From contig JBEKOM010000001.1 in the NCBI GenBank assembly GCA_049521795.1, positions 256,001 through 320,000 on the forward strand: a DNA stretch of 64,000 nt. Direction: 5' to 3'. Source of the DNA: Candidatus Bathyarchaeia archaeon. GTDB lineage: Archaea; Thermoproteota; Bathyarchaeia; Bathyarchaeales; Bathycorpusculaceae. Shown one piece after another: positions 13,687-60,048 of the stretch. The notes below the pieces were generated by a model. It made no database searches. It was not told the origin of the DNA and was given only the letters and a program-made list of their open reading frames with translations. The first letter of the stretch is position 1. Every line of letters begins with the position of its first letter. The translations under genes and the position numbers were made by a program.

Positions 13687-13949
13687 CCGAAAACTGAACA
13701 ACGGAGATTCTCACAAACCTCACGAACACTTTCATGATGTTCCTCCGCGACACTTACGCTCATCATATGGAAAAGACGGCACAACAAGCAACGAAACCTG
13801 ATAGACCTAAGCTTAAGCCCGCCTCAGCAGCCCTTGTCGGAAAGAAGGACTCGCAGTGAAGTGCACCCTAGGAGGAAGGAAGGACAAACGTGCCAACATT
13901 GCTCAGGAACTACCTTGCCTTAGCCCTGTTTCAAGCCCTCGGCACGTGC

Positions 13950-14073
13950 TCGGCCTAAAGCGCGTACAAATCCACTAGGGCCTTCAGGAGCGCCTTTGTG
14001 CAGTACTAGTACCCTAGGGGGGAGGGGGGGTGGATTAGAAGGGGAGAAACGCGAATACAGGGATGTAGCGTAT
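13950..14073 (+). repeat. Dispersed non-coding repeat, copy A (candidate structured RNA/element)
   Basis: Aligns by eye to the reverse complement of 59678..59797: about 17 mismatches plus one 4-nt gap in a G-run; last 27 nt identical. Confidence 0.9.
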
Positions 14074-14202
14074 GCTATCCTCGCGAGACAGCAACGAACA
14101 GCCTTGGTAATTCCGTCATGCTGGGCGGTAGTGATGATTGTTCTAGAAATTGGAATTATAAGCACCGTTTAACTAGTATTATGCTGCGAAGCGTGGCGAG
14201 CC

Positions 14203-45278: not shown

Positions 45279-45624
45279 CCTCCTTAGCTTTAGCTAAAAG
45301 TAGCGCGTCAGCATATTCCTGGATTGTTTAGAGAAGCAGATCGTGCTACTCATTCTGCTCCCCAACCATATTTGGGTCATATAGGATACCCCGGGGGGAG
45401 GGCGTGAGCACGAAAGCACCCAGCCCGAACCGTAACAGTATAACCATCCCCACCGGAAAACGCCAAGCCTCCGTCTTGAACAGAATTTAAAGAGCAAGCA
45501 TGTGCATTACGGGCATCGGAACCAGCGCGTTGCCTTGTCCCTTTATTATGCCTGCGCCCTTGAATAGCCCACACGGCTCGCATCCAGCCTAACACTCTCA
45601 GCGTTTTCAACAATGCTTGCCAAC

Positions 45625-45659
45625 TGTATATGCAAAGTGTATATGCAAAATGTATATGC
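45625..45659. repeat. Three direct repeats of TGTATATGC at 13-bp period
   Basis: Exact 9-mer at 45625, 45638 and 45651, separated by AAAG/AAAA. Confidence 0.85.
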
Positions 45660-45763
45660 TTTCAGTTACGCGTTTTTTGCGAATTTAGGACAAGCCAACG
45701 CGCTACAAAACTTATCTTGTACACTGCGAACTCTTGCCTTAAGCAGAAGGGGTGAAACGCAAG

Positions 45764-55850: not shown

Positions 55851-56043
55851 GTACACCTGGCGGCTGCGTTCACAATTTCACAGTTCACAAGCTATAGGTG
55901 TTACGGTGAACACTGTGCTGCAAAAGGGAAACAAAACAGCCTCTAAATCAATAAAGCAGCTATATTTCCAGCCTTATTGAGATTGCGCGGGTAACAGGTT
56001 TTCAGAAAGTCAAAATGAGAATAGACTCGGTACGAAACGCGTT

Positions 56044-56620
56044 TTCCAGTGGAAGAGCAGGGGTGAGCTATTCACAGAAAAGAAGCATAGATGACTCAAT
56101 TGGAGGAAATAGGCGGATGTGGAAACGACATTGGTAGGTAAACTTCACAAGGATTTCACGGAAAGTGAACGAAAAAATGGACGAGTGCGCGCCGCTACGG
56201 GTGGAAGGTTTCAGTGGAGTGGAGTTTAGAGGTGTTAAATAAGCAAAAGGTTCCAATTGGCAGTCTACACCGCAAGCAGTATGTAGAAAAGAAGTCACAC
56301 CCCTTCATTTCCATTGGAAAGGGTGTAAGTCTAGTATTGTCTGTAAGCAAGTTTGAAATGTTTTTTAGTAAATGTCTAAAATTCTAGCTGAAAGTAAATA
56401 TAACGTCATTTACCAATTACATAGAGGAGTACAAGTTTTTCTAAGTATAATTAGCATTTCTTCAACTCAAAGAGTGAACACTTCCATCAGAAGCTGGGGG
56501 GTGTGCCTGTTCATGTTGGAGGGTATTTAGTGTTAAAGGTGTGCTTCTTCTTTAGAATTCTTGTGCTTAGTATTTAAATTTCTGTATGGTAGGGCTTATG
56601 TTTTCCACAGGAAGAACGCT
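56044..56620. other. Chromosomal replication origin (oriC): ORB elements flanking an AT-rich DNA-unwinding region
   Basis: ORBs TTCCAGTGGAAGAGCAGGGGT (56044, +), TTTCCAATGGAAATGAAGGGGTGT (56297..56320, -), TTCCATCAGAAGCTGGGGGGTGT (56482, +); AT-rich 56330..56470; directly upstream of cdc6. Confidence 0.88.
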
Positions 56621-56650
56621 TGTTACTACTGGACTCTGTGAGTTGATGGA

Positions 56651-57901
56651 ATGAGTAATGCTGATATTCTTGATGAACTCTTCGAGAACTTCGCGAGCAA
56701 CACCACAGTTTTTAGGGATCGAGAGGTACTGCGACATGATTATCTTCCAGACAGGCTGCCTCATCGTGAAGGGCAGATCAGGCAGTTGGGGGAAATTGTT
56801 GCTCCCTTGCTTAAAGGTGCAAGAAGCTCCAACATTTTTATCTATGGCAATACAGGAACCGGGAAAACCGCTGTGGTCAAGTATGTACTAACTCGTCTTG
56901 AGTTTAAGGCTAAAGAATTCAACGCACCTGTTAAGATATGCTACGTCAACTGTAGGCTAGCCGGATCCGAGTACAGGGTCTTCGCAAGTATGTGCCAGAG
57001 TTTAGGTGTTCAGGTTCCATTCACAGGGTTATCCGTCGGTGAAGTCTATGATAGGTTCACTGCAGGTTTGGACCTTTCGGGCACGATTTTCTTGGTGGTC
57101 TTGGATGAAGCCGATGCGTTGACAAAGATGCGCGGGGACACTTTTCTGTATGAGTTGACTAGAATGAACGAGGTTTTGAGGCACAGCAAAATAGCCCTTG
57201 TTGGGATATCTAACGATCTGCGCTTCAAAGAGTTTCTGGATCCTCGTGTCCTAAGCTCACTGAGCGAGGAGGAGATTGTTTTCAGGCCCTACGATGCAGG
57301 TGAGTTGAGAAACATACTCGCTGAACGGGCCCAGGCAGCCTTCACTGAGAAATCATTGTCCGATGCCGCGCTTGGCCTTTGTGCTGCTCTTGCTGCAGCA
57401 GAGCATGGGGATGCGCGTCGAGCTTTGGACCTTTTGCGTGTTGCCGGCGAGGTAGCTGAACGAAAAGGGTTAACCGTGGTGTCTGAAGAGCATGTTCGCG
57501 AGGCTGAGAAGCATATTGAGCACAACCGTGTTGTTGAAGCTTTGAGCAACCTGCCGTTGCACTCGAAGCTTGTGACATTGAGCATCTATCACTTGGGCAA
57601 AAGAGACGCTCGGGGCGCCATTACGGGTGAGATCTCTGAGGTCTACGAGGAGCTGAGCGGGGAGTTGGGAGTTGCGCCGCTGACTCAGCGGCGTCTGAGC
57701 ACGTTGATAAATGAACTGGACGCGATGGGACTGTTGAACGCTAGGGTCGTTAGCATGGGAAGGTACGGGCGAACGAAGAAGATACGGCTTGAGATCGGGC
57801 GCAGCCTTATTCGAGACGTGTTTGCTGAGGATAGTAGGCTTAGCCGCCTAGTTAATTACGAAGTGCAGTGCATTTCGAAGCGCGCTGATGGCAGAAACTA
57901 A
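56651..57901 (+). CDS. cdc6: Orc1/Cdc6 replication initiator
   Basis: LPHRE, YGNTGTGKT, VLDEAD, LDPRVLSSL, GDARRALDLLR, GRYGRT. Confidence 0.96.
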   Translation: MSNADILDELFENFASNTTVFRDREVLRHDYLPDRLPHREGQIRQLGEIVAPLLKGARSSNIFIYGNTGTGKTAVVKYVLTRLEFKAKEFNAPVKICYVNCRLAGSEYRVFASMCQSLGVQVPFTGLSVGEVYDRFTAGLDLSGTIFLVVLDEADALTKMRGDTFLYELTRMNEVLRHSKIALVGISNDLRFKEFLDPRVLSSLSEEEIVFRPYDAGELRNILAERAQAAFTEKSLSDAALGLCAALAAAEHGDARRALDLLRVAGEVAERKGLTVVSEEHVREAEKHIEHNRVVEALSNLPLHSKLVTLSIYHLGKRDARGAITGEISEVYEELSGELGVAPLTQRRLSTLINELDAMGLLNARVVSMGRYGRTKKIRLEIGRSLIRDVFAEDSRLSRLVNYEVQCISKRADGRN

Positions 57902-59677: not shown

Positions 59678-59797
59678 ATACGCTACATCCCTGTATTCGC
59701 GTTTTTCCCCTTCTATTCCACCCTCCCCCCTAGGGTGTTAGTACTGCACGTAGGCGTTGCGAAGGGCCCTAGCAGACTTGTACGGGCTTGAAGCCGA
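59678..59797 (-). repeat. Dispersed non-coding repeat, copy B (inverted relative to 13950..14073)
   Basis: Reverse complement matches copy A at about 86% with an identical 27-nt 3' core. Confidence 0.9.
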
Positions 59798-60048
59798 CCG
59801 CGCGCAGAACGCTCGGCCGAGGGTCTGGCAAGGGTACTAACTTTTCAATACACTTCACCCTCTGCCTTTTTCCAGCTTTATCTGCCCAGCTCAGAGCTTG
59901 CCTAAACGCCTGCCCCTCGCCTCTCTAGGCCGTAGCACGAGAAGTTCCCAGACCCGACATTGTCGCCGTTTGGCCTGACGCGGACGGATGTCCTCGTGAA
60001 GGGTTCTTTCAGATCTTTTAATATTCTCCTATCGAGTATCGTGTCGTA

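Follow-up and report, generated by a model that had tools for sequence, protein, structure and literature searches.

The element that had been described as two related stretches within the DNA analysed here (64,000 nucleotides, referred to as the window, whose numbering is used unless a contig is named) belongs to a repeat family with 14 full copies in the genome, and the spread of this family is clade-restricted, to a few species of peat Bathyarchaeia. On balance, we favour the reading that it is a clade-restricted, non-autonomous and modular interspersed repeat that would act as DNA, its conserved boxes being putative recognition sites and its copies recombining with one another. The Bathyarchaeia are abundant, uncultured archaea of sediment and peat, and the passages returned by a full-text literature search contained no description of non-coding repeats in this group.

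The analysis used the archaeon's own assembly (G000; 2.44 Mb in 69 contigs, with a completeness of 98.75%; contigs are designated C1, C2, C9 and so on) and three congeners that carry the repeat, G001, G002 and G010, of which G001 is the sole carrier assembled as a single closed contig. The core of the repeat was delimited from an alignment of the 14 G000 copies and then of 59-60 copies from the four genomes. In the unit, a core of about 177 nt is preceded by a 5' module, which is interchangeable between copies, and followed by a weak 3' tail, the total length being at most about 300 nt, so that the extent of about 120 bp originally proposed was too short: the core of copy A starts at 13897 and the 5' module of copy B reaches to about 59947. 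The features of the two copies in the window are as follows.

13897-14073, plus strand: core of copy A (profile positions 2-177; nhmmer match at C1:269897-270071, equal to 13897-14071, E 3.1e-45).
Roughly 13860-13896, plus strand: diverged 5' module of copy A.
13998-14021, plus strand: box 1 of copy A, GTGCAGTACTAGTACCCTAGGGGG (94.0% identity, 312/332 positions, over 15 orthologous pairs).
14022-14046, plus strand: G-rich spacer of copy A, variable in length (80.7% identity between orthologs).
14047-14070, plus strand: box 2 of copy A, AAACGCGAATACAGGGATGTAGCG (96.8% identity, 361/373 positions, over 15 orthologous pairs).
14071-14105, plus strand: weak tail with the pattern T.C.CCAYC..ACGAACAG, derived from the downstream sequences of 113 distinct copies.
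59678-59850, minus strand: core of copy B (nhmmer match at C1:315680-315850, equal to 59680-59850, E 2.2e-46).
59840-59947, minus strand: 5' module of copy B, of the commonest type (..GGCAAGCTCTGAGCTGGGCAGATAAAGCTGGAA..; module profile match at C1:315947-315840, E 1.5e-13).

Read from 5' to 3', the core comprises the moderately conserved ATTGAAAAGTNAC, then ACCCTTGCC, about 80 variable nt, box 1, a G-run and box 2. Box 1 takes the form GTGCAGTACTAGYACCCTAGGGGG across copies and box 2 the form AAACGCGAAYACAGGGATGTAGCG, and the purine/G-run that follows the CCTA is 6-17 nt long (143 copies) and is separated from box 2 by a short variable stretch. Inside box 2 of copy A lies the imperfect hairpin ACGC-GAA-TACA-GGGA-TGTA-GCG(T). 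The 3' border after GTAGCG marks the end of strong conservation only, as a weak tail of about 30 nt continues beyond it (TATGCTATCCTCGCGAGACAGCAACGAACAG in copy A), and 13 of 114 distinct tails continue into a second repeat family. At the 5' side, one module of about 110 nt, which starts with the CACCCTAGGGG.AGGG motif in a second copy of the same orientation, was common to 25 of 60 copies, the remaining copies having unrelated modules; a profile search found this 5' module solely in the company of cores.

The second dispersed repeat is about 190 nt long and more abundant, with a copy in the window at 45530-45705 on the plus strand and others in G000 at C1:57869, 132789, 344272, 403696, 534060, 546610, 551199 and elsewhere. 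It has two or three 13-nt iterons (TGTATATGCAAAR; 25 iteron-cluster matches in G000) and a sharp conserved end, TTTTTGCGAATTTAGGGACAAGCCAGCGCGC, and its 5' part resembles the tail of the first family, to which it is fused at some loci. The palindromes GCGCGCGC or TAGCGCGCGCTA recurred at module borders and at the borders of the repeats themselves in both families, for example at L002, L030, L041 and L058 and at C1:534060 and C3:56883 of G000. The two families together appear to be the main dispersed repeat of the carrier genomes.

The comparison from which the family came to light was accurate at the level of letters. Copy A (13950-14073, plus strand) aligned with the reverse complement of 59678-59797 with 17 mismatches and a single 4-nt gap, located in the G-run, and the last 27 nt of the two copies were identical, as had been reported; the hairpin letters, the CUAGGG/CCCUAG complementarity, the UCCAC or UCUGC opposite GUGGA and the variable G-run were likewise all present. 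A BLAST search of G000 with copy A recovered copy B at E 1.6e-31, so their likeness is not due to chance, together with 12 further places at E <= 6e-8 (18 rows, of which 14 were real copies and 4 were noise). A profile search likewise identified these 14 copies, at full length and with E <= 4e-27, and added 7 weak, partial matches. Thus, the element is a repeat family and not the pair that had been supposed.

Further homologs were found in the three congeners. With a covariance model built on sequence alone from the 108 positions at the 3' side, 28 matches (23 of them strong) were obtained in G001, 36 (26) in G002 and 7 (6) in G010. By BLAST the family was present in 4 of 41 related genomes, all belonging to one genus, with no match in 6/10 other members of that genus, and of the 151 genomes sampled from the taxonomic family, G000 and G002 alone had strong matches to the covariance model. 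Among the species genomes of GTDB, exact matches to the 22-mer of box 2 numbered 32, of which a closed Bathyarchaeota chromosome contributed 17, a Bathyarchaeia MAG 14 and a single further contig 1; viral contigs had no match. The 84 stretches recovered from JGI metagenome contigs were largely the same loci again. The DNA runs that contained the region were metagenomes from peat, soil and wetland, and none of the 21 public runs was an RNA run. The single 22-mer place elsewhere was on a contig binned as a bacterium. L090 (DASPPK010000076.1), a 25.8-kb contig assigned to 'Candidatus Acidiferrales bacterium', bears the archaeal repeat among the same neighbour genes as the Bathyarchaeia loci L031 and L147, and is probably mis-binned.

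Conservation within the unit was assessed from 15 ortholog pairs, G000 against either G001 or G002. Identity was 94.0% for box 1, 96.8% for box 2, 90.6% for ACCCTTGCC and 82.8% for ATTGAAAAGTTAC, the corresponding values being 73-75% for the rest of the core, 80.7% for the spacer and 78.5% for the 70 nt downstream. Since the boxes lie far above the rest of the core, they are held by selection or by concerted evolution; judged from these alignments, the core outside the boxes drifts as neutral intergenic DNA does. In the 5' variable half, orthologs were 72% identical as against 61% for paralogs, although the flanks of orthologs were about 90% identical, and orthologous sites can bear differing subtypes of the variable block. 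That orthologs were barely nearer to each other than paralogs, and could differ in subtype, suggests that blocks have been exchanged between copies.

The original prediction offered a structured non-coding RNA or a non-autonomous element. The multi-copy, non-autonomous part of this proposal stood, whereas the structured RNA did not, as helix pairing over 59 copies was at the level of shuffled alignments. Single folds were weaker than those of shuffled sequences for both copy A (z +0.97, with 167 of 200 shuffles folding at least as well) and copy B (z +0.87, 163 of 200). RNAalifold on 59 copies gave -1.45 kcal/mol with 11 pairs, one of which showed a double change, and on the G-rich strand no pair had a mean base-pair probability above 0.35. 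When the three helices proposed earlier (18 pairs) were laid on the 59 copies, 82.5% of cells were paired compared with 82.4% in shuffles, and no covariation was seen among the additional copies (0.066 against 0.065 in shuffles, a value reached by 214 of 500). Pairing of UCCAC with GUGGA was retained in just 65% of cells, and a U-A pair of the hairpin was lost by a U-to-C change in 12 of 59 copies with no compensation. A conserved RNA fold for the family is not supported; an RNA that is unstructured or bound by protein would be compatible with these failed structure tests.

Searches for known RNA classes were in agreement with the earlier statement that the element could not be assigned to tRNA, SRP, RNase P, C/D or CRISPR. 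The whole 64-kb window contained no Rfam match at the gathering threshold and no tRNA, and at E <= 10 the sequence around copy A gave 5 chance-level rows, none of which lay over 13998-14071. Between copy A and the next gene there is a GTGATGA-containing stretch (14123-14171, plus strand) with weak matches to C/D-box snoRNAs (E 0.39, 19.7 bits against a gathering score of 52); no D box was seen in it, and it is probably nothing. A G-quadruplex was considered as the conserved feature and set aside, as four G-runs joined by loops of up to 12 nt were present in 69 of 143 copies and, when the loops were limited to 7 nt, in only 3 of 143. A guide-like role was also rejected, the conserved block having no complementary 12-mers elsewhere in the genome other than single chance matches.

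The repeat has no ORF, and the length of its G-run is not a multiple of three across copies. Its neighbours are housekeeping genes in any orientation relative to it, and the orientation of the repeat is unrelated to the adjacent genes. Clustering of ORFs at the flanks of 60 and then 143 copies revealed no recurrent flanking ORF at non-orthologous loci: the clusters consisted only of orthologous neighbours and ordinary paralog families, and the seemingly recurrent ones were tentatively assigned by eye from their sequences, with no family search, to an aldehyde oxidoreductase, a ferredoxin, an Lrp-type regulator and an ABC ATPase. At C1:179080-179270 in G000, one copy is followed, after about 120 nt, by a tRNA-Gly gene on the other strand, and a CCGAAA..CTTAAAT-like motif recurs upstream of the tRNA genes of this genome.

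Searches for partner enzymes gave no candidate. TnpB (PF07282) and the Y1 transposase (PF01797) were each found in none of the four carrier genomes, with the controls positive in 8 of 14 and 6 of 14 genomes, respectively; serine recombinase domains were likewise found in none of the four carriers, with working controls, and no reverse transcriptase was found in G000. The Y2 transposase of IS91 (PF04986) was detected in 0/4 carriers, but its control was likewise silent (0/14 genomes). Tyrosine recombinases (Phage_integrase) numbered 10, 9 and 12 in three carriers and about 10 in the repeat-free congeners G004, G005, G008 and G009, so that their numbers are uncorrelated with the presence of the repeat and they were rejected as partner; one was located some 0.9 kb away from a copy in G001, a proximity compatible with chance. 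More widely, 9-12 tyrosine-recombinase domains per genome were seen in many members of the family and order, with or without the repeat. Matches to DDE_Tnp_1 were weak and few (2 in G000). Self-comparison of G000 revealed no insertion sequences among its long repeats, which from a reading of their sequences are presumably paralogous housekeeping genes and a provirus. The contigs C3 (700-6700) and C16 carry what we take, without a family search, to be terminase large subunit and portal protein genes, duplicated between the two at about 82% identity; these are a provirus or two related viruses. No parent IS sharing the ends of the repeat was found with the module profile, among flanking ORFs or among the long repeats of G000.

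To follow the fate of individual copies, the flanks of 46 copies from relatives were mapped onto G000. In 14 cases the site was collinear and occupied, in 9 it was collinear without an intact G000 copy, in 13 it was rearranged (the two flanks lying far apart or on opposite strands of one contig), and 10 were unmapped or split. Copy A has orthologs at the same site in G001 and G002 (L020 and L021), as does copy B (L035 in G002 and L062 in G001), and all G000 copies except possibly one have an ortholog in some relative. The original prediction had proposed a search for empty sites, and a clean one was seen at C1:20075-20083 of G000 opposite the filled site L025. This filled-empty pair showed no evident target duplication, with a flank difference of about 10% blurring the junctions; the earlier statement that no conserved ORF or terminal inverted repeat is visible was borne out, and no target duplication could be made out at this one blurred site. 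Elsewhere, G000 retained remnants, each of them limited to one part: the 3' hairpin block, the 5' module, the 5' half of the core or a piece of 19 nt. The unoccupied sites of G000 look to be mainly the result of loss in that genome. None of the mapped copies was a clearly young insertion, and so past mobility is suggested by the distribution of the family and was not itself observed.

Several rearrangements have their breakpoints at copies of the repeat. The segment C9:9910-20518 (10.6 kb) lies between two inverted copies; G000 and G002 agree in its orientation and G001 and G010 have it reversed, with both flanking copies kept in all four genomes. Further breakpoints at copies were seen at C2:256k/267k, C1:442k/500k and C1:75k/531k. 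Each C9 copy resembles the ortholog of its own 5' flank, which places the crossovers in or beyond the conserved 3' block, and as the flanks of G000 are nearer to those of G001 than to those of G002, the pattern of orientations suggests, from flank similarity rather than a tree, that there was more than one flip. MAG assemblies could mis-orient a segment between inverted repeats. Contigs from four DNA runs over the 14.5-kb C9 region end inside both copies and none runs across them; because public contigs break inside the repeats, they neither back nor refute the orientation.

The closed genome of G001 allowed the spacing of copies to be examined. Adjacent matches within 17 kb of each other form 8 pairs (spacing 7.9-16.4 kb): 5 converge, so that their box 2 ends point at each other, the other 3 run in tandem, and no divergent pair was present. 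In simulations, the probability of at least 5 convergent pairs was 0.003 for random places and strands and 0.026 with the places fixed; as the 17-kb limit was set post hoc and the numbers are small, the convergent pattern is a lead only. The genes enclosed in the C9 segment are presumably EF-1alpha, S7, S12 and RuBisCO, from our reading of the translations, and Pfam searches identified among other enclosed genes a proteasome subunit, FttA, the class I (Leu-type) and His tRNA synthetases, a tRNA-intron endonuclease, an Lhr helicase and TldD/PmbA. With core genes in the DNA between them, the paired copies do not delimit islands, and a composite transposon or island bounded by such copies was rejected on this ground. 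Duplicative inversion as the source of the pairs was unsupported, the members of pairs being of different subtypes.

Three other readings of these observations were weighed. It is possible, if rather unlikely, that the repeats are a family of small-RNA genes, with the core transcribed from the G-rich strand and ATTGAAAAGTTAC serving as a BRE/TATA-like promoter for a candidate RNA of at least about 135 nt; boxes 1 and 2 would then, with the same limited likelihood, be putative protein-binding or processing signals, and little secondary structure would be needed. Several features agree with this. Between orthologs, ATTGAAAAGTTAC (82.8%) and ACCCTTGCC (90.6%) exceed the 73% of the next 80 nt; ATTGAAAAGTTAC resembles in form the CGAAA and CTTAAA-type motifs upstream of the tRNA genes of G000, which we take to be promoters of the archaeal kind; a core at C1:187083 begins directly next to the promoter-like end of the second family; and strong conservation of primary sequence would be compatible with a ribonucleoprotein. 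The folds below shuffled level, the RNAalifold energy of -1.45 kcal/mol and the lack of covariation and of an Rfam family argue the other way, as do the missing terminator-like T-run at the common 3' end, the loss of the ATTGAAAAG motif in copy A, the restriction to few species with many decayed copies, and the absence, bar single chance matches, of complementary targets of at least 12 nt. Relics of IS200/IS605-type or rolling-circle elements seem very improbable. On this view the 3' block would represent the right end (or the omega/reRNA scaffold of TnpB), and the variable 5' part, just as improbably, would represent DNA that had decayed or been captured. TnpB and Y1 were found in 0/4 carriers with controls positive in 8/14 and 6/14 genomes, no copy lay behind such a long ORF, and no left-end hairpin matched, against which can be set the sharp common end a few bases past an imperfect hairpin, the variable 5' side and the lack of terminal inverted repeats and of an evident target duplication.

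The third reading, that the repeats are polar, cis-acting host sites (for boundary, loop-anchor, or fork or recombination control) set as convergent pairs around segments of about 10 kb, we regard as unlikely. The 5 convergent and 0 divergent arrangements among the 8 close pairs of G001 (P 0.003 or 0.026), the core genes in the enclosed segments and the conservation of the boxes at orthologous sites all fit a host function. However, the 17-kb threshold was post hoc and the pairs few, those of the other genomes are largely orthologous and so not independent, and the members of pairs are not each other's closest relatives; moreover, many sites are decayed or absent in G000 with no sign of harm, most of the genus is without the family, and orientation is unrelated to neighbouring genes. 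A bolder variant, to which we likewise attach little probability, would have the boxes be polar sites of a putative archaeal recombination or chromosome-organising machinery, or of a box-defined RNP, that places or maintains copies in convergent pairs, with 8-16 kb between them and core-gene blocks inside, and flips these blocks repeatedly between close species.

For the interspersed repeat acting as DNA that we favour, the following mechanism can be proposed. Selection or concerted evolution preserves primary sequence and not a fold, leaving the two boxes of about 24 nt and the shorter ACCCTTGCC box near-invariant while the remainder drifts. The boxes would be DNA recognition sites for a putative trans-acting protein (e.g. 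a recombinase, a transposase or a host factor). An ancestor shared by a few Bathyarchaeia species of peat may be where the family spread; in G000 it would now mostly be undergoing loss or erosion, its copies serving as putative substrates for ectopic recombination that swap blocks and flip the DNA between inverted copies. Conservation of the boxes could equally stem from selection on RNA, which counts against the DNA reading. The family marks sites at which sister genomes differ by inversions, and public contigs break at it, which makes it relevant to MAG assembly; it also bears on inference from synteny and on the rearrangement of archaeal genomes without obvious transposases. If a dedicated factor reads the boxes, the family would provide a practicable way into a new DNA-protein or RNA-protein system; if there is none, this would be an ordinary decaying selfish repeat.

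Among known systems, the closest comparators are REP/BIME, BOX, ERIC and Correia-type sequences, which are bacterial mosaic or 'species-specific' intergenic repeats. Set against Rfam families, MITEs, IS200/IS605 ends, TnpB scaffolds, REP/BIME and ORB, the repeat lacks at least one tested defining feature of each. The resemblance to ORB elements concerns a half-site: copy A has TGGA-N6-GGGGA and the family consensus is TGGAA-N5-GGGGT, as in the ORBs upstream of cdc6 (TGGAA-N5-GGGGT), and copy B lies 3 kb from the cdc6 origin. Unlike in an ORB, the resembling positions vary freely among copies (TGGAA, TGAAA or TAAAA; GGGGT or GAGGC). The dyad TTCCASWGGAA had 3 matches at 2 sites in the window (56044 and 56603), both upstream of cdc6, and the ORB or origin reading was rejected, as the dyad occurs only at the real origin (56000-56650) and the repeat has a variable stretch resembling a half-site. 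That origin likely lies in the 795-bp gap upstream of the Orc1/Cdc6 gene at 56651-57901. An AT-rich stretch there is surrounded by ORB-like boxes, namely TTCCAGTGGAAGAGCAGGGGTG at 56044, TTCCACAGGAAGA at 56603 and one in inverted orientation near 56300; the gene for the PolD small subunit is convergent with cdc6.

The ends of IS200/IS605 elements, PATE and TnpB omega/reRNA scaffolds share with the repeat a subterminal imperfect hairpin, a sharp 3' border and the lack of inverted termini and of an evident duplication. Unlike these, the repeat shows weak conservation past its border, and neither TnpA nor TnpB was found in any of the four carriers; no second conserved hairpin end was found, the upstream hairpins differing in sequence between copies. 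As in MITEs, the unit is small, free of ORFs, multi-copy and variably present among close relatives. Unlike for MITEs, neither a parent IS with matching ends nor terminal inverted repeats were found: when the 5' end was locally aligned with the reverse-complemented 3' end and compared with shuffles, 0 of 16 full-length copies reached p<0.05 (lowest p 0.07). Prokaryotic MITEs have been reviewed (PMC10969869, in excerpt), and species-specific repeats have been surveyed across 613 prokaryotes (PMC3372372, in excerpt). Compared with the REP/BIME type, the present family differs in being archaeal, in its 177-nt core, which is longer than a REP unit and not palindromic, in that a Y1 (RAYT-like) gene was not found, and in the focusing of conservation in two boxes of about 24 nt. 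Nevertheless, like REP/BIME-type repeats it is short, non-coding and intergenic, is present in tens of copies within a narrow lineage and in either gene orientation, combines its modules differently from copy to copy, and provides substrates for recombination.
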